Positions 4,852-47,019 of a DNA stretch of 64,000 nt are shown here, piece by piece. This DNA is from Patescibacteria group bacterium (GTDB taxonomy: Bacteria; Patescibacteriota; Patescibacteriia; Veblenbacterales; UBA10138): assembly GCA_041648575.1 (NCBI GenBank), contig JBAZOT010000006.1, positions 11,893 through 75,892 of the forward strand, written 5' to 3'. The notes beneath the pieces are model-generated. The model did no database searches. It was not told the origin of the DNA and was given only the letters and a program-made list of their open reading frames with translations. The position numbers and the translations under genes are program-made. Positions within the stretch are counted from its first letter, which is position 1. Every line of letters starts with the position of its first letter.

Positions 4852-6780
4852 TTAATCATTAATTAAATTTAAATTTATCAATAACTCCTTTATTTCATCT
4901 GAATACTTTCCATTATTTAAATTTAGATATTTTGTAAATTTATCTTTGGCTCCTGGCAGGTCGCCTATACTGTACATCACTTTACCCCATGCTAAATAAA
5001 ATTCTGGTTTATTAGCTAACGACCTCTCCCCTTTGGCAAATAAATTTAGCAAAACTGGTAGTTGGGCATTATCAACACTAGACCAAATACTAAGCAAAGT
5101 TATCATTTCCTGATAATAAACAGGGTCAGCTAATCCTTGAGTACGACTTTTGTTATACCATTGAGCACTAGCCCATAATCCATTAACATCCTGCGTGCTC
5201 ATGGCCTTTATTAGTTTAGTTTTCCCAACAGCCGCTGAATAGTTGGGTTCATTACCATTTAAATTTGTTACTTTTATAAAATAACTTTCAGCTTGATCAA
5301 TTTTATTTGATAATAAACTAACTTCTCCTTTTTTTTCAGAAATATCTGCACGCCAAATATTAATATTATGAATCACTGGCCATAAAAAAATTATTAATAT
5401 AATAATCATAGCCCATATTTTTTTTAAATAATTATATGAATAATTATTATTAGTATCAATTTCAAATCTAAAAAATATGGCGATTAATAAGAATAAAAAT
5501 ACTAAACTAACTATATTATCAAAATTAAAAAACCCCATTAATAAATAACTAATCAGACTGGCAATTATACTCAAATAAAAAAAGAATTGATTGCCTGTTG
5601 AAGTTTTTAATTTTTGATATAATTGCTTAATAAATAAAATAATAATTAGTAAAAAGCCTAGTAGCAATAAACTGCCGCCAGTGACCATAAAATCAAGATA
5701 AATGTTGTGGGATCGGTCAAAAAGATTGGGTTCAATTACAAAAGGCGAAGGGTGATTTTGCGATAAAATATAAAATGTTTCCGGACCAAACCCCAACACT
5801 GGCCTTTGCTGCCAGGCATCAATAGCTATTTGCCACACCCACAATCTTACCCCCAAGCTATTGTTTTGTAAGTCTAGAGAATTATTTAAACGACTGCTAA
5901 CCCCTACCCAGTTCACGCTAAAAAATATCATGATTACCAACAATAATATTAGTAATAATTTTTTTATTGACAATTTATTAAATATAAATTTGTAACCATG
6001 CTTTATTGCTATTACCACTACTGTAAATACCACGACCGCTATTAGTGCTAACCACGCACTACGCGCTAAAGTAAAAACAATTGCTATAACTGAAACCATA
6101 CTACCAACTACCACCAACGATTTACTCCACAGGGATTTATAATTAGTAAAAGAATAAACAATCAATGGCAATACCATGACTAAATACATTCCTAAAAAAT
6201 TAGGATGGCCTAAAGTTGAAAACGACCGAATGGAGAAATCGCTAGTGGCTACCCGATAACCACGCTCAAAACCAGGCAAATCAACGCCCCAATGCTGTAA
6301 CATAGCATAACCGGCAACTATGGTTGTAACTATGGTTAAACCTAATAATAATTTACGAATTATGTTTCTATCAAATAAAATAAAACATAAATAATAAAAA
6401 ATATAAATATGCAGCCAAGTAAATAAGCCCTGCCATCTTTCATATAATCCCCAAATACTAACCGGCCTAAAAATTGAAAAATAAGTAGCTAATATTTGAA
6501 CAACCATCATAAAAGTAACAGCTAAATTTATCGGCTGTTTAAAAAAAGCTGTTAAATCTCGCTGACATAATTTTATGGTATTGTTTTGAAATAGCTTATA
6601 CAGTAAATATAAAATTAATGCCAGTTCCACACCCAAATTAAGGCAAGACACTTTAACAACTTCAAAAACATTATAAGTCCTAATATCAAATATTAACGGC
6701 AACAATAAAACAGTTGCCAATAAGCACCAAATTGACAATTTCTCAAAATTCAATCTGATTTTTTTAAAATAATTTACCAT
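4852..6780 (-). CDS. O-antigen ligase (Wzy_C)-like polytopic membrane protein with C-terminal TPR-like soluble domain
   Basis: 642 aa with >10 TM helices and a long loop typical of WaaL/O-antigen polymerase-like proteins. C-terminal ~170 aa hydrophilic TPR-like. Family assignment from architecture only. Confidence 0.5.
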   Translation of the reverse strand: MVNYFKKIRLNFEKLSIWCLLATVLLLPLIFDIRTYNVFEVVKVSCLNLGVELALILYLLYKLFQNNTIKLCQRDLTAFFKQPINLAVTFMMVVQILATYFSIFRPVSIWGLYERWQGLFTWLHIYIFYYLCFILFDRNIIRKLLLGLTIVTTIVAGYAMLQHWGVDLPGFERGYRVATSDFSIRSFSTLGHPNFLGMYLVMVLPLIVYSFTNYKSLWSKSLVVVGSMVSVIAIVFTLARSAWLALIAVVVFTVVVIAIKHGYKFIFNKLSIKKLLLILLLVIMIFFSVNWVGVSSRLNNSLDLQNNSLGVRLWVWQIAIDAWQQRPVLGFGPETFYILSQNHPSPFVIEPNLFDRSHNIYLDFMVTGGSLLLLGFLLIIILFIKQLYQKLKTSTGNQFFFYLSIIASLISYLLMGFFNFDNIVSLVFLFLLIAIFFRFEIDTNNNYSYNYLKKIWAMIIILIIFLWPVIHNINIWRADISEKKGEVSLLSNKIDQAESYFIKVTNLNGNEPNYSAAVGKTKLIKAMSTQDVNGLWASAQWYNKSRTQGLADPVYYQEMITLLSIWSSVDNAQLPVLLNLFAKGERSLANKPEFYLAWGKVMYSIGDLPGAKDKFTKYLNLNNGKYSDEIKELLINLNLIND

Positions 6781-19681: not shown

Positions 19682-19993
19682 ATATCAAATTTATAAATAA
19701 AGAAAGTATTATAAAAGGCCTATTAATAATTCAGTAAAGAGTAATTAGGCCACAAACTAATTCTAGCAGAAAATGACTAAAAAATAAAGCCTTTAGGATT
19801 ATCATTATTTGGTAAATATTAACCACTACAACAGGATAAATTACTTGTCCTATCGTATATATCATCGGCGAAATCCCTGCCTACGGCAAGCAAGCGCTGA
19901 AGTCCCAACTTGTCGGGACGAAGGAGAATAAAACTCCATCTTACTGCTTAATGAACGAGCTTTGATAGCTGATGGTTGATAATTATCTGATAA

Positions 19994-20732: not shown

Positions 20733-20771
20733 AATCACCCCGATCCGCCATTGGCGGATATCGGGGTGATT
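20733..20771 (-). terminator. Rho-independent terminator of hup
   Basis: Inverted repeat AATCACCCCGAT CCGCC ATT GGCGG ATATCGGGGTGATT (17-bp stem) followed on the minus strand by TTTTTTATA, 20 bp past the hup stop. Confidence 0.7.
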
Positions 20772-21968: not shown

Positions 21969-22102
21969 GTCATTGCGAGCCTGCCTGCCGGTAGGCAGGG
22001 ATTCCCGTCTAACAGGTCGACGAAGCAATCCCGAAGGTTGCAAGCTTAAGCGAAGCAATCTCCAGAGATTGCCACGCTTCACTTCGTTTCGCTCGCAATG
22101 AC
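21969..22102. mobile_element. MITE-like structured element with 12-bp terminal inverted repeats GTCATTGCGAGC/GCTCGCAATGAC
   Basis: 134 bp. Contains the 21-bp CCTGCCTGCCGGTAGGCAGGG hairpin and a perfect GCAATCT-CCAG-AGATTGC hairpin (its partner GAAGCAATC..TTGC is imperfect). Partial copy of the same TIR at about 46990-47005. Confidence 0.5.
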
Positions 22103-26710: not shown

Positions 26711-26761
26711 TTATTAGAATATATCATGGCATAAAATATGTCAAGCAGCCCTTTCTAAAAC

Positions 26762-26825
26762 CAAAAACCACCCGATGAGGGTGGTTAAAGAGTACTGGTA
26801 GGGGCTGTGGAACGATGTTCGAACA
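26762..26825 (-). repeat. Cassette-array repeat R1 (terminator hairpin ACCACCCGATGAGGGTGGT + degenerate tRNA-Trp 3'-end-like module)
   Basis: CTGGTAGGGGCTGTGGAACGATGTTCGAAC aligns with the B-module of R2-R7. Abuts the stop codon of the PIN-like gene. Confidence 0.55.
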
Positions 26826-26828
26826 ATC

Positions 26829-27431
26829 TTAACTGACCAATTGGTTTGCATCTTGAGGGGCAGAATCTAATGGACTATGACCTGCTTCAGATAAATTTGA
26901 AGCTGTCTTGGAATAGTTTACATTTTTACCGACAAAAATAAAGTTAATTCCAAACTCCATACAGGCTATTTCAATCATAATGTCACCCGTACAAATTAAT
27001 ACATTTTTAGCAAATCTTTCTTTAAGCACTAAAGCGAGTGATACTAAACTCTTGTCAGCGCCACTATTACTTAACCAAAATAATCGTTTATCGTGAATTC
27101 TCTTCATATTTTCCGGAAAGAAATAAAGGATATCTCCGTTATCTAAATCAAACCCCTCAGAGAGTTTTTTCTCTTTATACCGTTGCATAAAACTAGTGGA
27201 AAAAATATCTGCGTTATCTTTGGTTGGACTAGTCACGGCTTTGGTATGTTTAACTGTATCTATTTCTAATAAAACATCGGGAATAAAAACAAACAGTTTT
27301 TTAATATTTGTATCACCACCCGGCCCAAATGCAGAATAATATTCTCGCCACTCTGGCTCATATAAAATAGCTGAAGTATCAATGATACATATTAAATCAA
27401 CCAAGAACCGGTTAATGTTCTCAAAATTCAT
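26829..27431 (-). CDS. PIN-like domain protein (putative nuclease), cassette 1
   Basis: N-terminal LICIIDTSAILYE (PIN strand-1 Asp), later acidic positions (LLEID, LDNGD, CTGD). 200 aa. Motif-level only. Confidence 0.4.
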   Translation of the reverse strand: MNFENINRFLVDLICIIDTSAILYEPEWREYYSAFGPGGDTNIKKLFVFIPDVLLEIDTVKHTKAVTSPTKDNADIFSTSFMQRYKEKKLSEGFDLDNGDILYFFPENMKRIHDKRLFWLSNSGADKSLVSLALVLKERFAKNVLICTGDIMIEIACMEFGINFIFVGKNVNYSKTASNLSEAGHSPLDSAPQDANQLVS

Positions 27432-27448
27432 GGATGCACAATTAATAA

Positions 27449-28162
27449 CTAAATTTTTATTCCCTTACTTTTTGCAAAATCAATAATATCTTTTATAGGA
27501 ACCCATATTGAAATTGCTACCCTAAATATATCTCCCTTATTAGGCTCTGATTGATTTAGAGTTTGTTCAACAACACGCCTTTGAACAATTGAGGCGTTGT
27601 GCATTCCAAACACCTTACCATTTCTAAGAAATCCCGGACTACCACTGGCTCCTGGATACATTAGAGCATCTGTCTCATAAGAATAAAAATTCTGATCGAC
27701 AAGTATAGTATTTTGGTAGCCAGATATACTTGCTCCTTGAAATCTTTCAAATAGATTAAATACGCCTGTATTTGGATGGATAGATGACAAAGGAAAACCC
27801 AACGATCCACAAGTGGTTCCAATGGGAATTTTATTCAGATAAAAGCTAACTACCTTCTTTGATCTAGGTTTTTCTATACGAATTAAAGCAATATCTCTTA
27901 CAAGATCTTCGCCGATATAAGTACACGACTCCATTTTTTTTCCAACATCACTCGCTAGAATTGCTTGAAAGTTAGTATACCTAGATTTTGTTCTATCACC
28001 TTGGATATGCACTACGTGTGCGGGAGTCACTAAGACACCTGGTGCAATCATAAAACCCGTTCCGGTGGTGGCAGTATATCCTTGGTTCAGTTGTGAAAAT
28101 GCCTTGATCCCATACAAGGACCTTCGTATTCTTGAACATGCCCATGGAAAAGTGTAAAACAT
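27449..28162 (-). CDS. Trypsin-like (S1/PA clan) serine peptidase, cassette 2
   Basis: GTGFMIAPGVLVTPAHVV (His), DIALIRI (Asp), PGASGSPGF (Ser, GDSGGP-like). 237 aa, no signal peptide evident. Confidence 0.65.
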   Translation of the reverse strand: MFYTFPWACSRIRRSLYGIKAFSQLNQGYTATTGTGFMIAPGVLVTPAHVVHIQGDRTKSRYTNFQAILASDVGKKMESCTYIGEDLVRDIALIRIEKPRSKKVVSFYLNKIPIGTTCGSLGFPLSSIHPNTGVFNLFERFQGASISGYQNTILVDQNFYSYETDALMYPGASGSPGFLRNGKVFGMHNASIVQRRVVEQTLNQSEPNKGDIFRVAISIWVPIKDIIDFAKSKGIKI

Positions 28163-28241
28163 AGTATTTATTAATAAGGTTTATATAAACCAAGTATAAC
28201 CATCTTAGGATTTTCGTCAAACCATATGAATAACAAACACT

Positions 28242-28736
28242 TCAATTTACATTCGTAGTATACTTACATTTCGGATAATTAGTGCATCCGTAAAACGAGC
28301 CAAATTTACCTTTTTTTTCCATTAAAGTACCGCCACAAGTAGGGCACACGCGAGGAGTAATGGGTGTGTTTATTTGAGAAATATCTTTTTCGGTCATCCG
28401 TATGTACTTGATTAATTGAAAACCATCAACGAGCTCAATTGGTTTGTCTTCAACAAACCTTTGGGCTTCTAATGTAAACTTATTTGTAGTAATGAAATAA
28501 CCCTTACCATTAGCAAGATTATTAGCCAGAGCACCATAAAAATCTCGCATGGCACCGAGTGTAACCTCTCTGGTAATAAACTTTTTACACTGAATATAAC
28601 TCGTTACCCCATCTTTTTGGATTACAACATCAATTCCGCCATCGTGCGATTTTCCAACGGCCTGTGTTTTATATCCGAGTTTAGAAAAAAGGTGAGCGAT
28701 ATAATTTTCAAACTCCGACGGTTTCATATTTTGCAA
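28242..28736 (-). CDS. Mrr-type restriction endonuclease catalytic domain fused to C-terminal topoisomerase-type C4 zinc ribbon, cassette 3
   Basis: FENYIAHLFSKLGY...SHDGGIDVVIQKDG...IQCKK (Mrr_cat D-(D/E)xK pattern). C-terminal CPTCGGTLMEKKGKFGSFYGCTNYPKCKY. Confidence 0.7.
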   Translation of the reverse strand: MQNMKPSEFENYIAHLFSKLGYKTQAVGKSHDGGIDVVIQKDGVTSYIQCKKFITREVTLGAMRDFYGALANNLANGKGYFITTNKFTLEAQRFVEDKPIELVDGFQLIKYIRMTEKDISQINTPITPRVCPTCGGTLMEKKGKFGSFYGCTNYPKCKYTTNVN

Positions 28737-29067
28737 CCATTGTAAAAGTTGCTGGTCAGAACGCCACTTAGCCCCTTCGGCAAAACGATTATCAGTTCGC
28801 CAACGATTAAATAAAATTGGTCCAAACTCGGAAAGTATCCATAAAACGAGAAGCCCTAACCAAAGTGGCCACCATGATAAAAAAATTCTTAGGAGACCTT
28901 AGTAAAGGCTTTGATTAAAGTCAATCATAGAATTTGTGTGTTTTAAAGATAAACACAAAGCCCTTGTCCAGCCAGGCCTTGCGACCCCATACCCCTTTCG
29001 AGATATGACCAACGGATGATGACTGTAGTTCAAACAACCATACCATTTGATGTATTCAACTCCTAAA

Positions 29068-29215
29068 ACTGGCAGTTTTGCCGTTTGGCAGGGTATCGTA
29101 GAGGATGTTAGAACCGCAATCCAGCAACAACAAGGGCATATTTACATACCTGATTTAAGACTAGAAACAATAAAGGTATAATCTACCCCACCCTGCTACT
29201 CACTATTGTTTTAGA
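29068..29215 (-). repeat. Cassette-array repeat R2
   Basis: TTGGCAGGGTATCGTAGAGGATGTTAGAACC (B), ACCTGATTTAAGAC (D), TACCCCACCCTGCTACTCACTATTGTTTTAG (E). Confidence 0.55.
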
Positions 29216-29305
29216 TGGGATTGAGCTTGACTTTTTGAGCTATTCAAGTAAAATTTAACTAATTAAATTGAACCTTGAAAACTGAATATTAGAAAGGGTA
29301 AAAAA

Positions 29306-29938
29306 GTGAACATCAAACTAACAGGACTTCGTGTGCTGAAGTTAATTATGTATACCATTATTTGGGTGATAGGTTTGATAGTATTGTTACTTTTCATCGG
29401 CTTTCTGAACTATAATCTACATTTTGGTAAAACCACTAACCTATACGTTGGAATCATTGCGGTCGGTGGGTATATCACGCTAACCGTATACAGCTTGAGC
29501 AAGATAGGCAAAATAGGAGTAATGATTTACTACGTATTGTGGGTTATCGCCTTACCCATCATTCTCCAAAATGTTCATACCTACTGCATCGAACACAATA
29601 TACGATATGGTAAGAATGATTTAATAATCGTTATTACGTTCCTAGTGTACATTGCCACTACAACAATACTGCCACTAATCTTGTGGCCGGGAAGGAAGTA
29701 TGACATGTACACAACTGAAGCTATAGCTAAAATAGCAGCCGGTGGGATATTTAGTCTCCCATACTACGCTTTTGTGGGTATCGGCCAAGGTATTCTTATG
29801 TTATTAAGGTTTTTAGGCCTTATCATTGCTGGTGTATTTGAATTAGCGATAATAATATTAAGTATAATAGGTAGTATTATTGGTTGGAGTATAGCCATAA
29901 TGTTCATTATTATCGTAATAGGCATAATATGTCACTAA
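29306..29938 (+). CDS. Polytopic membrane protein, cassette 4 (plus strand)
   Basis: 210 aa, 6 TM helices. Own hairpin+T-run terminator at 29947-29978 (AATCCCAGCTT..AAGTTGGGATTTTTT). Confidence 0.4.
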   Translation: MNIKLTGLRVLKLIMYTIIWVIGLIVLLLFIGFLNYNLHFGKTTNLYVGIIAVGGYITLTVYSLSKIGKIGVMIYYVLWVIALPIILQNVHTYCIEHNIRYGKNDLIIVITFLVYIATTTILPLILWPGRKYDMYTTEAIAKIAAGGIFSLPYYAFVGIGQGILMLLRFLGLIIAGVFELAIIILSIIGSIIGWSIAIMFIIIVIGIICH

Positions 29939-29984
29939 TATAATCTAATCCCAGCTTAAAAATAAGTTGGGATTTTTTATTCAC

Positions 29985-30158
29985 CAAAAACCACCCTCAT
30001 CCCTCATCGGGTGGTTGAAAGTTGCCTTCAGGGCATCGTAGAGCCTGCCTGCCGGTAGGCAGGGATGTTAGAACTAGGATTAGAGAAGCGGGAGTGGTAT
30101 ATATACCTGACTTAAGGACTTAAAACTTACCCCACCCTGCTACTCACTATTGTTTTGT
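29985..30158 (-). repeat. Cassette-array repeat R3 (carries a 21-bp REP-like hairpin insertion)
   Basis: Modules A (ACCACCCTCATCCCTCATCGGGTGGT), B (TTGCCTTCAGGGCATCGTAGAG[CCTGCCTGCCGGTAGGCAGGG]ATGTTAGAAC), D (ACCTGACTTAAGGAC), E (TACCCCACCCTGCTACTCACTATTGTTTTG). Confidence 0.6.
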
Positions 30159-30206
30159 TATGGCAACACTGAAGAAGTGATAAAATCATATTAATTGTTC
30201 TTAATA

Positions 30207-31217
30207 TTAATTATTCGGAATTAGTACGTTTTCGTAAGCGATAAACTTCGGTTTTATATCTTCTTCATAATTCCAAGTATCAGATTGCACATCAACATTT
30301 CTATCTGAAACTATTATAGGATAGCCACTTTGTGTTTTCGTTTTGTCATATATCCCAATTATAATCTGATTACCATTTACTTTTATATTATACTCAGCAT
30401 TTTGTCCCATTCCGAATGTTATATTGGAAATCAACCATTGGTTTTCCTTAACCACAAAAAGATTATTTTTAGAATCAGTTTCTAAATTAATAATATATAC
30501 ACCATTCATATCCCATTTAATTAATCTTTTACCATCCGCAAGAATCTTGTAGCTATCACTAGCCCAACCACGATATAAATCATACGTTGCAATAAAATTA
30601 CTCACAGCTAGCTCTTTTATTGTTAAATTAGATAAATCTAGACTATAAATTGCATTAATTCCCGAATATGGCACGTCGCTTTCCAAGTGATAAGCAGTTT
30701 TGAAATATAAATATTTTCCATCAGATGGAGCAGAAAACAGTTCTATATACATTGCACAACTGGGTTTCTCTTTTTCACCAGAGGAAATTAATTGTAATAA
30801 ACTAGGAATTAAAATTTCAGTTTTATTTTTTACCAGTTTCGTGTCCTCAGCGTCACTCCAATAATCTTCATAACAAGATTTATCTAGTTGATTATAGATC
30901 GGGGATTGTTTCAATGGATAATTGATTAAGGAATAATCTTTTAGATTAATATCACTTACATTATTACATTTTTCCTCCCAAACCCTTAAACACTTCTGTT
31001 TTTGTTCACACCAAGAATAACCAGCTGAGCCAATACAGCCATGTTCATCCTCATTATTACCAACTAATGGTTGATTTGTATTGGAGCTAACATTAACTGA
31101 AGTATTATTATCATTTTGTTTAACTGGCTTTTGTTGAGTTGGTGTTTTAGAGCAACTAGCCCCAAGCAACATAACACCGAGTAGTAATATACTGAAGGTT
31201 ACTATTGATTTTTTCAT
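30207..31217 (-). CDS. Lipoprotein of unknown function, cassette 5
   Basis: Signal peptide with lipobox LLGASC. 336 aa, N/S/T-rich. Confidence 0.4.
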   Translation of the reverse strand: MKKSIVTFSILLLGVMLLGASCSKTPTQQKPVKQNDNNTSVNVSSNTNQPLVGNNEDEHGCIGSAGYSWCEQKQKCLRVWEEKCNNVSDINLKDYSLINYPLKQSPIYNQLDKSCYEDYWSDAEDTKLVKNKTEILIPSLLQLISSGEKEKPSCAMYIELFSAPSDGKYLYFKTAYHLESDVPYSGINAIYSLDLSNLTIKELAVSNFIATYDLYRGWASDSYKILADGKRLIKWDMNGVYIINLETDSKNNLFVVKENQWLISNITFGMGQNAEYNIKVNGNQIIIGIYDKTKTQSGYPIIVSDRNVDVQSDTWNYEEDIKPKFIAYENVLIPNN

Positions 31218-31267
31218 AACAAATATAGAATTATTATTTAATACTTTAATTATACCCCTTACTATAA

Positions 31268-31455
31268 CTAAAAACCACCCCCATCGGATGGTTTAAAAGG
31301 TGCCTTCAGGGGCTAGTGGAGGACGTTAGAACCAGGATTGTGGCCAAAGAGATAGCCTTAGCTTAGTTACCCCACCCCTCGAACCACTATTGTTTTAGGA
31401 ATAAAAAAGAGAACACTATCAATTAGTGACAATGCCCTCTGAATTGTTTGTTAAA
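31268..31455 (-). repeat. Cassette-array repeat R4
   Basis: Modules A, B (GTGCCTTCAGGGGCTAGTGGAGGACGTTAGAACC), E (TACCCCACCCCTCGAACCACTATTGTTTTAGG), F (AATAAAAAAGAGAACACTATCAATTAGTGACAATGCCCTCTGAATTGTTTGTT). Confidence 0.6.
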
Positions 31456-31481
31456 GAATAATTGTTACAAAACCGCTCGTT

Positions 31482-32321
31482 CTATTTAAGAAAACGAGGT
31501 ACTGCTATTGGTTCATCTTCTGAACTTCTGGCCACAAGGAATATAAGTGAGGCGTTAGCGGCACCAAGGTTGGGAAGAAGTATTAGTTCGTTTCTTTCAC
31601 CAAGTCCACTTCCACCAAGTAGTAGGTACGCATGACATGTACTATTGAAGGATTTATCCATGCCTATCCTCAAGGCTTGATAACCAGCAATAAAGACAAC
31701 TGGAACATGGCTGTCATGCATCCGTTGCTGCCACTTAGGAAAGTATGATGCTGCCCAAAGTACTGCCGAGCTTGGAACTATAGAGGGATCCATTGCTTCC
31801 AAGGGATCTACGCCCCAATTGTCTAGTCGGGTGTTATTTGCGGGATCATAGAACGAAGCCATCGCGTTTATTATTTTACTCAGCTTTTCAGGTTCTTCAG
31901 ATACACTGACATCACCTTGATTCCACATGTGTGCGAGATCAATAATCCGCCAGCTCAACCCACGGCGGTGGGTAAGCCCAGGCCGTAAGCGCAGGTGAGA
32001 CTTGTCGAATGACAACTCGGGCTGGCGGTAATACTTCGGCTGTACCGCCGCGGCAAAAAGGCTTGCCTCCTCAACCGTCTCCCGCACATTGTCCAACATC
32101 ACATCAAGCACTACCGCAGCCAGCATACCAGGTACGTGTGGCCATGGTGGTGGCGCCCCCAGTGCTTTGAAATCTGCCTCAGTGAAACCCCAACCACGTT
32201 CACGGTTTCGTTCTCGCACGATATACAGCTGTACCTCTTGTGGGGTTATATTCGGAAAGTTGTCAGTTGGTACCAACAGCGCCTGCCGCTCCTCATTTAT
32301 GTTGTGTTCATACTTTTTCAT
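31482..32321 (-). CDS. Hypothetical protein, cassette 6 (visibly GC-richer than its surroundings)
   Basis: 279-aa ORF, R/P/W-rich composition atypical for this genome. No motif recognised. Confidence 0.35.
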   Translation of the reverse strand: MKKYEHNINEERQALLVPTDNFPNITPQEVQLYIVRERNRERGWGFTEADFKALGAPPPWPHVPGMLAAVVLDVMLDNVRETVEEASLFAAAVQPKYYRQPELSFDKSHLRLRPGLTHRRGLSWRIIDLAHMWNQGDVSVSEEPEKLSKIINAMASFYDPANNTRLDNWGVDPLEAMDPSIVPSSAVLWAASYFPKWQQRMHDSHVPVVFIAGYQALRIGMDKSFNSTCHAYLLLGGSGLGERNELILLPNLGAANASLIFLVARSSEDEPIAVPRFLK

Positions 32322-32526
32322 GATTTTACCTCTTTATTTTTTGTTACATTATGATATAAGCCAACAAAAACAAGCAAATAGTCTGCTTGTGACTGTTTGT
32401 AAAAGAGCTACTTCCTTTGTATTACAGTTTACACTATCTTACCACCGAATGGCGGTTTGTCAATGTCTTGAAACCACATACAAATAAAATGATTCGTAAA
32501 CCAAAAATCACTCAAACGAACGGTTA

Positions 32527-32722
32527 AAAGATAATGGCTCCGCATCGTGCCTGCCCGCCTTGGGTGGGGACGACGTTAGAACCAAGATTATGGAAGCTGG
32601 GGAGGTTTATATGCCTGATTTAAGGACATACTTCCAGTTTGTAGTCTACCCCACCCCATGAACCACTATTGTTTTAGGAATAAAAAAGAGGACACTATCA
32701 ATTGGTGACAATGTCCTCCGAA
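32527..32722 (-). repeat. Cassette-array repeat R5
   Basis: B (CCTTGGGTGGGGACGACGTTAGAACC), D (CCTGATTTAAGGAC), E (TACCCCACCCCATGAACCACTATTGTTTTAGG), F (AATAAAAAAGAGGACACTATCAATTGGTGACAATGTCCTCCGAATTGTTTGTTG). Confidence 0.6.
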
Positions 32723-32743
32723 TTGTTTGTTGTTTATTTACTA

Positions 32744-33427
32744 TCAATTGGCAAGCTTAACGGCAACGAAAAGAGTATTACGATACCACCGACTCTTATC
32801 ATTAATCTTTTCCAAACCAATATAACGCCTTGTAGTAGTTGCCCACAAAAAGCAGACGCGTTTCGAACCATCTTGCTGCCGCGACATTGTGCCAAGCCCG
32901 GCTACGGAGTATCCCCTTTGAATATCGGGAAATCTTGCTCCAAAGGCCAGAAGTTCCGGCAGTTCTGCAGGACGAAGATTACGTTTTACCAGCTCAGCAA
33001 TAACATCTTTAATGGTTGGAAATAACGACGGGTCATTAAAAAGAACGGGAATAATATACACCTCGGCCTTACCTTGACGTGTGGCAGGGAAATTTTCATC
33101 TGTGATAGTAGGGTCTACGCCGTCATATTTTCCCGCCAAGACTGCCTCTGCTGTAGATAGATCGTAGTTTACTGATACGGTTACTCCTGTTTCGGCTATC
33201 TGTTTTGCTTTTCGTAATCCTTCCTCCTGAAGCGCCCGCCCCTGATCTATACCCTCTTGGATTTTTCGCGTTTTACCCGCATCGTCAACCATTTTTGATA
33301 TTGCCATTACCAACAATAGGATTACGAATAGCCCCCTTCCCCAATCCGTACTGAGTATGGCGATAATTATCATAAGTGCCATGTATCCAAAAAATGCTAT
33401 CAGCAAAGCTATGACTATAATCTCCAT
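32744..33427 (-). CDS. Hypothetical protein with two N-terminal TM helices, cassette 7 (GC-richer)
   Basis: 227 aa. No motif recognised. Confidence 0.35.
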   Translation of the reverse strand: MEIIVIALLIAFFGYMALMIIIAILSTDWGRGLFVILLLVMAISKMVDDAGKTRKIQEGIDQGRALQEEGLRKAKQIAETGVTVSVNYDLSTAEAVLAGKYDGVDPTITDENFPATRQGKAEVYIIPVLFNDPSLFPTIKDVIAELVKRNLRPAELPELLAFGARFPDIQRGYSVAGLGTMSRQQDGSKRVCFLWATTTRRYIGLEKINDKSRWYRNTLFVAVKLAN

Positions 33428-33552
33428 GACGCTACTCCTTTCTATTAAGGTACTGTTATTTTATATTGGTATTTACCTAATTTATATTTAGGTTGATTTT
33501 AATTCTGCTTTATCATTAGCATAATATCCATAATTTGTCCATAGCATCATAT

Positions 33553-33710
33553 ACCAAAAACCACCTTCATCAGGTGGTTTAAAAGTGCCTTCAGGGCATC
33601 GTGGAGGATGTTAGAACTGTAATTCGGGGACAAAAGAGGTGTATTTATGTCCCTGATTTGAGACTGGATCGGAATATACAAACTTGGAATTTAGATTAAG
33701 GGGGGTGGCT
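33553..33710 (-). repeat. Cassette-array repeat R6
   Basis: A (ACCACCTTCATCAGGTGGT, perfect), B (GTGCCTTCAGGGCATCGTGGAGGATGTTAGAAC), D-like (CCCTGATTTGAGAC), inverted E-like (AAGGGGGGTGG). Confidence 0.6.
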
Positions 33711-33809
33711 TATTCTTGACAGAACAGTTATGAAGTATTAAGGTTATCACAAACAAACTAAAGTTATTTTAATGAACCCGTCCACGAGGATTCGTGGTAA
33801 AAAAGATTT

Positions 33810-34184
33810 TTGAAAGGAAGTAATATGGCAAAAAGTCAAGATGCTACTGAGCGTGAAGATAGGTTTATGAAGTTATTTGAAATGGTTCAGCCGGCTTTAA
33901 TTCCGCCACAAAATATGCAGACTAAGCAACTTATTGAAAAGACCTATGATATTATACAGAAGCTCCAACGCAGACTTCAATGTGTCTTTAACATTTCACA
34001 AGAAAAAAATGAACAAATTTTTCTTGCTTGGTATATCGGAGAACTACAACGGCTTAATTTGGAGATGAAGAAGAACAAATATGCGATATACAAAGCTTTT
34101 CCTTTCTGCGCCGCCTTGAGCCAAGCAATTAAGATTTACGAAGACGCATTCAAAGTTGATGAATATACTGAAGAGCCCACCTAA
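33810..34184 (+). CDS. Hypothetical protein, cassette 8 (plus strand)
   Basis: 124-aa ORF preceded by AGGAAG-like RBS. Confidence 0.3.
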   Translation: MKGSNMAKSQDATEREDRFMKLFEMVQPALIPPQNMQTKQLIEKTYDIIQKLQRRLQCVFNISQEKNEQIFLAWYIGELQRLNLEMKKNKYAIYKAFPFCAALSQAIKIYEDAFKVDEYTEEPT

Positions 34185-34257
34185 TGGCGCAAATAATTTC
34201 CTTTTTGTTCCCAAATAAAGCTCATTAACAACAATAAGTTAATGAGCTTTTCTTTAT

Positions 34258-34325
34258 CCAAAAACCGCCCTCATCGGATGGTTTAAAAGGTGCCTTCAGG
34301 GGCGGTAGGAATCCTTTTCCCCCAA
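34258..34325 (-). repeat. Cassette-array repeat R7 (near-perfect 17-nt copy of the tRNA-Trp 3' end; att-like)
   Basis: CAGGGGCGGTAGGAATC at 34297-34313 is identical to tRNA-Trp gene positions 34484-34500. Preceded by the A-type hairpin ACCGCCCTCATCGGATGGT. Confidence 0.65.
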
Positions 34326-34479
34326 AATTTAGCAACGCTTTGGCGTAAGCTAAATTTTTCCTCCAAAGCCCGGGTGTTCAAAAACGTAAAGCAGTTTACA
34401 TTTTTGAACTACCCTTCGATTCCTACCTCCGCCACAAACAAGAAAAGAGCATTCCCGAAAAATCGGAACTGCTCTTTTC

Positions 34480-34945: not shown

Positions 34946-35031
34946 TGGTGGGTGGAGTAGGATTCGAACCTACGAAGGCCGGAGCCAGCAGATTTACAGT
35001 CTGCCCCGTTTGACCGCTTCGGTATCCACCC
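34946..35031 (-). tRNA. tRNA-Tyr (anticodon GTA), long variable arm, CCA encoded
   Basis: Acceptor GGGTGGA/TCCACCC, anticodon stem GCAGA/TCTGC, loop CTGTAAA, variable arm TGGCTCCGGCCTTCG, T-arm GTAGG-TTCGAAT-CCTAC. Confidence 0.85.
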
Positions 35032-35045
35032 ATATTTTATAAAAA

Positions 35046-35282
35046 CTATATTAATTTTTTAAATGCCTCGCCTCCTTTATATGATTTGATCTGCAACTCT
35101 CTTTTATAGGCTTCTGATTTTGAATTAAATTTTTCAATGTATATTACTCGCCACGGAATTCCACTTTTAGTCGATCTAACTAATCCTTTATTATGTCTAG
35201 ACAATCTTTGCTCTAAATTTTCTGTATGACCAATATAGTACTTTTGGTTAGTTTGACTCTGCAATATGTAAGTAATATACAT
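35046..35282 (-). CDS. Small stand-alone GIY-YIG nuclease domain protein
   Basis: MYITYILQSQTNQKYYIGHTENLEQRLSRHN...(GIY-YIG ... R ... E core). Start placed at the internal Met because the ORF-track N-terminal extension (to 35348) is translated from a tRNA-derived fragment. Confidence 0.7.
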   Translation of the reverse strand: MYITYILQSQTNQKYYIGHTENLEQRLSRHNKGLVRSTKSGIPWRVIYIEKFNSKSEAYKRELQIKSYKGGEAFKKLI

Positions 35283-35321
35283 AATCCAACTACGGAGATT
35301 TATGCCGCCTCTGGCGGGGTG

Positions 35322-35379
35322 GCAGTCTGCCCCAGCTTGTCCCGCCACCGGCGGGATTTGACCGCTTCGGTATCCACCC
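35322..35379 (-). pseudogene. Duplicated 5' half of tRNA-Tyr (positions about 1-34) with a 24-nt hairpin insertion
   Basis: 35357-35379 is identical to 35009-35031 (tRNA-Tyr 5' 23 nt). CAGTCTGCCCC repeated at 35323-35333 and 34998-35008. The copy diverges exactly at anticodon position 34/35. Confidence 0.5.
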
Positions 35380-35671
35380 GTGAACTAATCACTCGCTTCG
35401 CTCGTTCTAATTCACGGCACGCCTAAACTGCAAGTGAGGCTGCGCCATGTACCCGAACGAAGTGAGTGGTACGTGGAGCTGTTACACGCCTGTCCGCCTT
35501 TAGCGGAGATTTGAACCCTGAACCAGACGTCGCTACACTCCATCGGTACAGGGCGGACCGCGGACCCTTTGCCCAGTACTGTGCTTTGCTCTAGTACTGG
35601 GTACTCCTTACCCCAGAAGCAGTCCGCCTTAGGCGGACGCTACTGGGCAAACATGGAGTTCATCTGCCCGG

Positions 35672-35744
35672 AGCCGTTGCGCGGATTTGAACCGCGGACC
35701 TACTCCTTACCATGGAGTTGCTCTACCAACTGAGCTACAACGGC
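35672..35744 (-). tRNA. tRNA-Thr (anticodon GGT), no encoded CCA
   Basis: Acceptor GCCGTTG/CAACGGC, D GCTC/GAGC, anticodon stem ACTCC/GGAGT, loop ATGGTAA, T-arm CGCGG-TTCAAAT-CCGCG. Confidence 0.85.
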
Positions 35745-36028
35745 TCTAGGCAGACGTATCATCCGAATGCTGGAGTTGCTCCCTGCCCCGTATGTAAATG
35801 AGCAAAGCGAATTCTACTGCGGGGTACCAACTGAGCCCTGCCTACCGGCAGGCAGGTACAACGGCCCAACTACGCTTGGATTTATTCCCAAGCTACGATG
35901 GGCGAGTGTACTTTTATACTATTTTTCTCGCCCTCCATAGCTTGAGTGTAACGAAAGTGGCAGAAGGAGCTACATCTACCATGGACAGACGTATCATCCG
36001 TATACCAGAGTTGCTTCTTTTAAATTAA

Positions 36029-46880: not shown

Positions 46881-46960
46881 TGTCATTCCGAATTTATTTC
46901 GGAATCTTGAAAAAATTATCTGGTTTGTTTCTAGATCCTGAAACAAGTTCAGGATGACAG
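46881..46960. mobile_element. MITE-like element (second copy), followed at about 46985-47005 by a partial GCTCGCAATGAC-type TIR
   Basis: TGTCATTCCGAATTTATTTCGGAA...GTTCAGGATGACA. Same position relative to an aaRS gene as copy 1. Confidence 0.5.
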
Positions 46961-47019
46961 TGAAACGAGATTGCTTCGTCTCCGCCGGTTGGCGGATCCT
47001 CGCAATGACAATTTAATAA

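Follow-up and report, generated by a model that had tools for sequence, protein, structure and literature searches.

How does a hairpin of 20 nucleotides come to stand, with exact ends, inside a cassette repeat, inside a module resembling a miniature inverted-repeat transposable element (MITE) and inside a displaced piece of a tRNA-Thr gene of one and the same bacterium? The question is raised by a stretch of 64,000 nucleotides of a Patescibacteria group bacterium (contig JBAZOT010000006.1, assembly GCA_041648575.1), which we call the window hereafter. We are confident that the hairpin is a discrete inserted element, a member of a family that crosses phyla and is tied to elements combining a small GIY-YIG nuclease gene with tRNA genes. 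It is characteristically found in the D-arm of a tRNA 5' half that has been displaced and lies beside such a GIY-YIG gene.

The unit that the three copies have in common is 20 nt long, CCTGCCTGCCGGTAGGCAGG (the T variant), and the copies are identical to one another, which points to copying inside the genome. The pattern CCTGCCN8GGCAGG has three matches in the window and none in 100 shuffles preserving dinucleotides. The sequence is a 20-bp palindrome whose symmetry fails solely at positions 8 and 13 (G/T). Single strands of it, whether DNA or RNA, form a stem of 7-8 bp with a CCGG tetraloop, and the folding energy is -7 kcal/mol for DNA and -11.8 kcal/mol for RNA. The perfect palindrome, CCTGCCTGCCGGCAGGCAGG (-8 kcal/mol as DNA, -13.9 as RNA), differs from it by one transition and is the ancestral form of the module, the window carrying a C13-to-T variant that keeps a G.T or G.U pair on one strand; the pattern CCTGCCTGCCGG[CT]AGGCAGG covers both. 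CCTG occurs twice in the left arm, hence the 16-nt slippage variants met in other genomes. A preliminary description, made from the letters of the window, had recognised the three-copy hairpin and its CCTGCC and GGCAGG ends; it gave it 21 bp instead of 20 and a "loop-inverted" third copy, which is the exact reverse complement, that is, the same element in the opposite orientation. The fold does not bear out a 6-bp stem with an 8-nt loop. Its start for the first copy (21980) is kept, and the positions are otherwise corrected in Table 1.

That these copies are insertions can be read from empty sites; the clean presence or absence claimed in the preliminary description was borne out, as were its three hosts, all with exact junctions. 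For copy 2, the cassette repeats at 29089 and 33592 read CATCGT(A/G)GAG directly followed by GATGTTAGAAC, and the repeat at 30030 holds the 20-mer precisely at this junction; the paralogous repeats at 29089, 31310 and 33592 are all without it. For copy 3, the intact tRNA-Thr(GGT) runs from GCCGTTGTA straight into GCTCAG, and the fragment at 35865-35821(-) reads GCCGTTGTA, the 20-mer, then GCTCAG; on the minus strand, the longer context is GCCGTTGTA, the 20-mer and GCTCAGTTGGTA, to be compared with GCCGTTGTAGCTCAGTTGGTA in the real tRNA 100 nt downstream. For copy 1, other copies of the MITE-like module pass uninterrupted from TCATTGCGAG into GAGCGAAGC..., or have another hairpin at that point. 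A relative, locus L123 (20.7 kb), whose triose-phosphate isomerase (TIM) is 75% identical to that of the window, shares with it the gene order TIM-TPR (tetratricopeptide repeat)-tRNA-Thr-tRNA-Tyr-tRNA-Thr-L33-tRNA-Trp and has, over these 20.7 kb, neither the 20-mer nor the small GIY-YIG gene: its intergenic region corresponding to the surroundings of copy 1 is without the MITE-like module, and its pseudo-tRNA-Thr, aligned by eye, reads GTTGTA then GCTCAG without interruption (GCCGTTGTAGCTCAG) upstream of tRNA-Thr(GGT). Copies 1 and 2 have only 3 nt per side in common (GAG...GAT), and the same bases are present in the empty sites, so there is neither target duplication nor a larger block shared by these two copies. 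Target-site duplication is absent at all three sites having an empty reference. No polymorphism was seen, each of the three sites being the same in the other assemblies of the source organism.

The pseudo-tRNA-Thr that hosts copy 3 bears a second insert of about 43 nt, ending in ...GGGGCAGG, at its D-loop/D-stem junction (between GGTA and GAGC), and looks like the remnant of a GIY-YIG/tRNA element minus its ORF (open reading frame). The direct repeats reported around this fragment do exist, with other coordinates and length (35732-35780 and 35967-36015, 49 nt, 78% identical); on the minus strand, they mark an additional pseudo-tRNA-Thr unit that is older, decayed and located upstream of the first, which suggests repeated insertions at the tRNA-Thr gene. 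In total, the window holds three intact and two putative decayed copies in 64 kb. One of the latter, the "weaker relative" noted near 19876, is indeed present and plausible as a decayed copy, read by eye and without statistics.

Exact matches to the 20-mer, sought in one genome per species, occur in at least 120 contigs from at least 10 phyla, cultured isolates included, among them palindrome-rich Bacteroidota such as Olivibacter oleidegradans CCM 7765: Bacteroidota, Ignavibacteriota, many Patescibacteria lineages, Omnitrophota, Planctomycetota, Chloroflexota, Nitrospirota, Desulfobacterota-type metagenome-assembled genomes, Acidobacteriota, Spirochaetia, WOR-3 and others; no cyanobacterium is among the matches listed. 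In about 180 copies from other genomes, the flanks are unrelated outside positions -1 and +1, which, together with the lack of a common block around copies 1 and 2, upholds the independent insertion proposed in the preliminary description against transport as a passenger of larger duplicated blocks. The 127 oriented T-variant copies show a bias at these two flank positions only (-1: G in 86, A in 32; +1: G in 73, T in 30); the unit is, thus, exactly the palindrome. Copies lie in the loop of another copy (L006, L022, L037, L073) or in the loops of other hairpin modules, such as between GTCATTCCCGCGAAA and GCGGGAATC in L057 or in a terminator-like hairpin in L038; 15% of the sites fall in loops of hairpins with a stem of at least 6 bp, mostly beside the 3' arm, against 3% of random positions. 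Long stop-free stretches hold 32% of the copies versus 84% of the background (68% versus 16% lie outside). Apart from the palindrome, no cross-phylum 14-mer recurs in six or more loci. In viral contigs, we found 12 stretches with the T variant and 35 with the perfect form, and the flanks of these 47 are likewise unrelated.

Two side observations concern the sites themselves. Many solo copies stand within short tandem repeats of 7-10 nt words, in intergenic DNA of unrelated phyla (L035, L060, L065, L092, L100, L221, L250). At about position 1279 of L014 (Daejeonella, Bacteroidota), TCATTGCGAG is immediately followed by a 1-nt-deleted, reversed palindrome, the same junction as in the window MITE at 21970; either one target was struck in two phyla, or a composite module was transferred.

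Other ideas were tried and abandoned. The halves of the 20-mer could have been inverted repeats of a larger insertion sequence; searching all loci with the 10-nt halves returned only mutated or deleted 20-mers. Insertion into functional tRNAs was rejected as well, since removing the 20-mer in silico never restored a tRNA detectable by ARAGORN across the junction, the hosts being displaced 5' halves. Phages as vectors do not fit the few viral copies (the 12 and 35 stretches above) or the single match of the GIY-YIG family in 2.9 million viral contigs. Finally, microhomology-primed copying from the tRNA junction would leave GGTA-like bases upstream of solo sites, and there are none.

Which gene, then, accompanies such a unit? 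An all-versus-all blastp of 3,202 ORFs revealed no widely common family among the neighbours of the 20-mer; the sole recurrent neighbour is the small GIY-YIG gene, a cluster of six loci. In the window, the GIY-YIG ORF (35046-35348; Pfam PF01541, E=1.3e-18) lies about 555 nt from copy 3, and the tRNA-Tyr locus at 34946-35379(-) is one complete GIY-YIG/tRNA unit, whose pseudo-tRNA-Tyr has a second insert in the anticodon loop. Searching with the window protein by tblastn returned homologues in L008, L032, L046, L063, L064, L102 and L112 (two). Seven of the nine GIY-YIG genes in the 20-mer-selected loci and the window are at most about 60 nt from a 20-mer or its 16-nt variant, and that of L063 is about 136 nt away. 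Gammaproteobacteria, Bacteroidota, Saccharibacteria, Ignavibacteriota and Patescibacteria share one order of the unit: first comes a displaced 5' portion of a tRNA, in some cases together with its leader and with the hairpin in its D-arm, next an ORF of about 80 aa for the GIY-YIG protein, then the intact tRNA. Displaced and intact tRNA are of the same type, with at least 10 tRNA types represented in several phyla (window, L008, L032, L046, L064, L102, L112, L141-L220). The Dehalococcoidia locus L063 deviates: there, the gene follows the intact tRNA and precedes a tRNA 3' fragment that holds the hairpin. L112 and L032 have tandem units (hairpin-GIY-hairpin-GIY-tRNA), consistent with repeated insertion at the tRNA.

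An alignment of seven homologues (78-94 aa) shows invariant Y, Y, G, R, H, N and E residues and no accessory domain, and the L102 homologue matches the UPF0213 structures 1zg2 and 1ywl of the PDB (E about 3e-4). These are minimal prokaryotic Slx1-like nucleases, and eukaryotic Slx1 is structure-specific, according to a 2006 survey of the GIY-YIG superfamily (PMC1564403); it gives other gene-neighbourhood links for the Slx1-like branch, and three mentions of tRNA in it involve no neighbouring tRNA gene. The nuclease is presumably of this minimal Slx1-like/UPF0213 type and would cut at loop/stem junctions.

The association holds in loci chosen without regard to the hairpin. Among 80 metagenome loci picked by protein similarity alone, 78 have enough upstream sequence; within 160 nt upstream of the GIY-YIG gene, 38 of these carry the perfect CCTGCCTGCCGGCAGGCAGG, another 5 have the T variant, and 18 contain a form at most 3 edits away. 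The palindrome is, thus, present at 3 edits or fewer in 61 of the 78, the others having a looser CCTGCC...GGCAGG form (13) or no recognisable relative (4). A tRNA starts downstream, at most 160 nt and mostly 0-30 nt from the end of the protein match, in 64 of the 80 loci (Arg, Asn, Leu, Phe, Thr, Lys, Met, Val, His and Gly). Once the hairpin is taken out, what lies upstream of the gene can be aligned with the tRNA over its first 27-44 nt. The hairpin sits at tRNA positions 20-24 (between GGTA and GAGC, the junction of the D-loop and the 3' D-stem) in 27 loci, at 14-15 in 11 (all tRNA-Leu), at 9-10 in 5 and elsewhere in 4; where the exact palindrome is missing, an expanded or decayed version of it, or another GC hairpin, occupies the same junction. 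The coding DNA of GIY-YIG genes beside identical hairpins is 57% identical, a divergence at which 20 neutral bases would stay unchanged with a chance of about 1e-5 per pair; the palindrome is, therefore, strongly constrained or continually renewed. The 20-mer is an almost obligatory part of the tRNA-associated GIY-YIG element, it prefers hairpin loops, and its ends are exact.

Two loci of this set of homologues deserve a separate remark. In the tRNA-Leu(CAA) of L064 and L046 (Bacteroidota), the T variant lies between GGTAGA and CGCGC in both, in opposite orientations, which reflects either independent insertions at one hot spot or a flip by two transitions. In L102 (about 4869-5688), ARAGORN does not recognise the tRNA that follows the GIY-YIG gene; this tRNA seems to be interrupted past the anticodon region by additional sequence, possibly an intron or a further insertion.

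Table 1. Copies of the 20-mer, their hosts and the GIY-YIG/tRNA loci of the window (window positions).
Feature	Position	Strand	Remarks
Copy 1	21980-21999	+	T variant CCTGCCTGCCGGTAGGCAGG, directly after GTCATTGCGAG within the MITE-like module
MITE-like module, 134 bp	21969-22102		Terminal inverted repeats GTCATTGCGAG...CTCGCAATGAC; host of copy 1
Copy 2	30044-30063	+	Between ...CATCGTAGAG and GATGTTAGAAC of the cassette-boundary repeat
Copy 3	35837-35856	-	Between A9 and G10 of the pseudo-tRNA-Thr 5' half
Pseudo-tRNA-Thr(GGT) 5' half	35745-35865	-	Immediately upstream of the intact tRNA-Thr; copy 3 between positions 9 and 10
Intact tRNA-Thr(GGT)	35670-35744	-	Paralogous empty site for copy 3
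Probable decayed copy	19876-19894	-	CCTGCCTAC-GGCAAGCAAG; differs from the reverse-complement form by one deletion and two substitutions; by eye
Older decayed copy, or different hairpin at a hot spot	32550-32569	+	CCTGCCCGCCTTGGGTGGGG, near the equivalent position of another cassette repeat
Minimal GIY-YIG (Slx1-like/UPF0213-type) nuclease gene, 78 aa	35046-35282	-	MYITYILQS...; between the pseudo-tRNA-Tyr 5' half and the intact tRNA-Tyr
Pseudo-tRNA-Tyr 5' half	35283-35379	-	Leader of the GIY-YIG gene; first 23 nt identical to tRNA-Tyr
Intact tRNA-Tyr	34946-35031	-	Directly downstream of the GIY-YIG gene

The explanation that we favour is that of a 20-bp GC-rich palindromic module at home in tRNA-targeting GIY-YIG elements and moved by their nuclease; as a whole, we give it an even chance. 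The nuclease would be structure-specific and would cut single-stranded or extruded hairpins at the junction of the loop and the 3' stem arm, for example between GGTA and GAGC in the D-arm. By plugging the cut site in the displaced tRNA half, the palindrome would guard the element against both re-cleavage and recombinational loss between the two tRNA 5' halves. A unit made of the hairpin, tRNA(22-~38), the GIY-YIG gene and tRNA(1-21), if copied into a break between positions 21 and 22, would yield the observed structure and the tandem arrays. The same nuclease activity, with host ligation or repair, might also move the bare hairpin, whose ends would be the exact base of its stem, in trans to other loops and to sites between a purine and G, without target duplication; such movement would account for copies 1 and 2, solo in their MITE and cassette repeat, for the copy between positions 9 and 10 of the pseudo-tRNA-Thr and for the nested copies elsewhere. 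A selfish tRNA-targeting element present in many phyla would make the 20-mer identical across them. That the GIY-YIG nuclease mobilises the solo copies is a step to which we give somewhat less than an even chance. More tentatively still, the minimal nuclease of about 80 aa and the 20-nt hairpin could form an autonomous/non-autonomous pair, the gene homing into tRNA genes, whose 5' half it would replace to let the tRNA survive, and the bare hairpin being excised and reinserted at loop/stem junctions.

Several points weigh against this explanation. About 94% of the T-variant loci have no GIY-YIG gene within several kb, and viral contigs contain 56 copies, 54 of them solo. The base at -1 is preferentially G at solo sites and A at tRNA sites. 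GIY-YIG enzymes cut without ligating, and the joining step needs the host. A role as plug alone leaves the conservation of this particular sequence unexplained. The GIY-YIG element of the window itself bears, at the D-loop/D-stem junction of its pseudo-tRNA-Tyr, another GC hairpin (TCCCGCC-NNN-GGCGGGA, 35340-35356) instead of the 20-mer, and a second hairpin family (TCCGCC-N3-4-GGCGGA) found at the same types of site fits a generic host process equally well. The orientation bias of the T variant in pseudo-tRNAs (9 to 3, p = 0.15) is not significant. Finally, the partial tRNA-Thr of L123 is likely the orthologous empty site, its placement being by eye.

Of the rivals, the generic host process just mentioned survives best, and we hold it to be unlikely. 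The GIY-YIG/tRNA elements would then only seed the palindrome horizontally, and its spread would come from template switching or hairpin slippage at stalled replication, with no dedicated enzyme, so that any very stable perfect palindrome would do. The enrichment of targets in hairpin loops, the coincidence of the element boundaries with the palindrome ends, the unrelated TCCGCC-N3-4-GGCGGA hairpins at a MITE centre and in a pseudo-tRNA D-arm, and the majority of copies without a nearby nuclease gene all agree with it. However, template switching normally needs microhomology and gives ragged ends, whereas the boundaries here are exact and the flanks random past ±1; it also leaves unexplained both the identity of the 20-mer beside 57%-identical coding DNA and the presence, in about 78-95% of the GIY-YIG elements, of this hairpin family at one defined tRNA position.

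The view of the preliminary description was that of a REP-like element (REP, repetitive extragenic palindrome), which calls for a Y1/HUH transposase encoded elsewhere, either a RAYT (REP-associated tyrosine transposase) or an IS200/IS605 TnpA, moving the hairpin as single-stranded DNA in the manner of REPs or PATEs (palindrome-associated transposable elements). A hairpin element without target duplication and with a preference for single-stranded loop targets is what such an enzyme would move; the T variant contains GTAG, a motif associated with REPs, and the window covers a small part of a genome probably of about 1 Mb, by our own estimate for this bacterial group. However, Pfam gave no Y1_Tnp match (PF01797-type) among the 50 ORFs of the window, which is itself only a fraction of the genome, and the neighbours of the copies include no recurrent gene of this kind; the TnpA or RAYT to be looked for according to the preliminary description was not found there. 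With unverified query sequences of IS608 TnpA and an E. coli RAYT, tblastn gave three weak scattered matches in 123 loci, none in the window. Moreover, the dominant perfect form has GCAG rather than GTAG, REP/RAYT pairs are lineage-specific and this sequence is cross-phylum, and 20 nt are too short for the off-hairpin cleavage and guide sequences of IS200/IS605 ends. We regard this view as improbable.

We give slightly less credit again to an immobile functional motif, whether a palindrome bound by a protein, a 5' hairpin that stabilises RNA or a terminator, which would have been selected or recruited separately at every site. The extreme conservation of a 20-bp perfect palindrome next to 57%-identical genes would suit it, as would its fixed position in the leader of the GIY-YIG mRNA, the stability of the RNA hairpin (-11.8 to -13.9 kcal/mol) and the mainly intergenic location. 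However, one exact sequence of 20 nt cannot emerge again and again by point mutation, and presence or absence relative to paralogues is all-or-none; nested copies and copies within other repeats have no evident function, no T-run follows the 20-mer, and its orientation to nearby genes in the window is inconsistent. A function in the GIY-YIG leader is, in any case, compatible with mobility and, hence, no alternative to it.

Least probable of all is a hairpin that never moves alone, its solo copies being left by decayed GIY-YIG/tRNA elements or copied in larger blocks, for if copy 3 does lie in an apparently decayed GIY/tRNA unit, 7 of the 127 T-variant copies are at most 150 nt from a tRNA without a GIY-YIG gene, and the tandem units of L112 duplicate hairpin and gene jointly, copies 1 and 2 have no tRNA-like flank in their MITE and cassette repeat and share 3 nt per side, nested copies and those in terminator-like hairpins and other repeat modules have no tRNA context, nearly all viral-contig copies are solo, and copy 3 is a second insertion, between positions 9 and 10, besides an older insert between 21 and 22.

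If nuclease-driven movement of a palindrome at home in GIY-YIG/tRNA elements is true, a selfish system targeting tRNA genes, which it keeps intact, is widespread in many phyla and carries a 20-bp palindrome that scatters through genomes. The searchable literature, with few subscription journals covered, gave no relevant account of the combination of GIY-YIG gene, tRNA and hairpin or of its architecture, and neither 20-mer string was found in the 8 million papers covered. GC-rich hairpin modules and spurious small ORFs litter the intergenic DNA of Patescibacteria, Bacteroidota and other groups, and such a system would help account for them; it would also put forward a definite candidate enzyme in the old debate on what makes repeats of such small size mobile, and would supply a horizontal-transfer marker and a compact structure-specific nuclease. 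The palindrome may be one of the smallest mobile DNA elements known. Should nuclease and hairpin form a pair, this would be the smallest bacterial transposable unit and the first GIY-YIG-driven DNA mobility of its kind, and the universality of its home target, the tRNA D-arm, would let the element cross phyla. Even without nuclease-driven solo copies, the fact that about 4 in 5 family members keep one 20-mer at one tRNA position despite 57% coding identity needs explaining.

A few features of the surroundings complete the picture of the window. An array of cassette-like units of about 1-1.3 kb each, bounded by a repeat of about 150 nt, extends from 26750 to 34400; the repeat comprises a AAAAACCACCC..GGGTGGTT hairpin, GATGTTAGAAC and TACCCCACCC..CACTATTGTTTT, and the genes are mostly of unknown function, with Mrr-type nuclease, PIN and trypsin-like genes besides. 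The interval from the L33 gene to the VTT gene measures 12.6 kb in the window versus 3 kb in L123. The second GC-hairpin family, (T)CCGCC-N3-4-GGCGG(A) with variable loops, occurs at 20744, 34558, 35340, 35622 and 46981, as well as in L123 and L162; its sites resemble those of the 20-mer, namely the pseudo-tRNA-Tyr D-arm junction and the centre of a composite MITE-like element at 46883-47009, made of the small hairpin modules GTCATTCCGAA..TTCGGAATC, GATCCTGAA..TTCAGGATGAC and GAGATTGCTTCG..CTCGCAATGAC. An Rfam scan of the window returned tRNAs only.

It remains to compare this element with known systems. REPs and their doublets (REPINs) with a RAYT are alike in being short palindromes (20-40 nt for REPs), intergenic, dispersed in many copies, without target duplication and with one nuclease-type partner gene flanked by copies. 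Here, the partner is GIY-YIG (Slx1-like) instead of Y1/HUH and lies in a tRNA context, the unit is a bare stem-loop, and, whereas REPs are species- or genus-specific with their own RAYT, this 20-mer occurs in at least 10 phyla; no REPIN-like doublet of the 20-mer was noticed, in the course of work that included no screen aimed at them. "REP-like", as first proposed, therefore fits the small dispersed intergenic palindrome and its independent insertion, and neither a RAYT link nor lineage specificity was found. IS200/IS605 elements and PATEs also depend on hairpins, are oriented to single strands and leave no target duplication; they have two distinct subterminal hairpins with external cleavage and guide sequences, measure at least 100 nt and insert 3' of a fixed target of 4-5 nt, whereas here a single hairpin has ends that are the element's ends, only -1 and +1 are biased, and no TnpA was found among the ORFs searched.

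Other very small repeats are closer in size. The small dispersed repeats (SDRs) of Nostoc also occur within larger repeats, and we know of no enzyme for them. The SDR4-6 repeats of 21-27 nt were reportedly proposed to be mobile by Elhai et al. in 2008 (Genome Res 18:1484), SDR5 being said to insert precisely within the highly iterated palindrome HIP1. SDRs are reported to be restricted to Nostocaceae (PMC5861425). They are of similarly tiny size and are set apart from the 20-mer, found in many phyla, by this distribution; a Nostoc-type SDR in a cyanobacterium was discarded for the window, which has no HIP1 sites and comes from Patescibacteria, its TIM being identical to one from a metagenome-assembled genome of this group. 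The GC-rich palindromic clusters and double-hairpin elements of fungal and algal organelles are likewise tiny GC hairpins invading AT-rich spacers, repeats and each other, with no enzyme that we know of; unlike the 20-mer, they are organellar, lineage-specific in sequence, usually longer and without a tRNA-associated nuclease gene. The 10-nt arms could be read as the abutting inverted repeats of a classical (DDE) MITE, but there is no target-site duplication. The Rickettsia palindromic elements, evoked in the preliminary description, are 100-150 bp long and often in-frame in genes; a mostly intergenic unit of 20 nt, no multiple of 3, does not match them.

The last comparison is with free-standing GIY-YIG homing endonucleases, such as I-TevI or SegB in the tRNA gene region of phage T4, which share a GIY-YIG gene beside or within tRNA genes. 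The cut made by I-TevI falls about 23-25 bp upstream of the point of its insertion; here, about 15-25 nt separate the hairpin from the point downstream at which the gene breaks into the tRNA copy. They differ in that the protein here is a catalytic domain of about 80 aa with no DNA-binding domain, the tRNA 5' half is duplicated and the tRNA left intact, a conserved palindrome occupies the presumed cut site, and the family is almost absent from viral contigs. The likeness to a homing element is, thus, circumstantial, resting on the tandem units and on the place of the gene, squeezed in between the displaced 5' half of a tRNA and an intact tRNA in 64 of 80 loci; the gene itself, with its PF01541 domain, its invariant residues and no accessory domain, belongs to the minimal Slx1-like/UPF0213 branch of the GIY-YIG nucleases.

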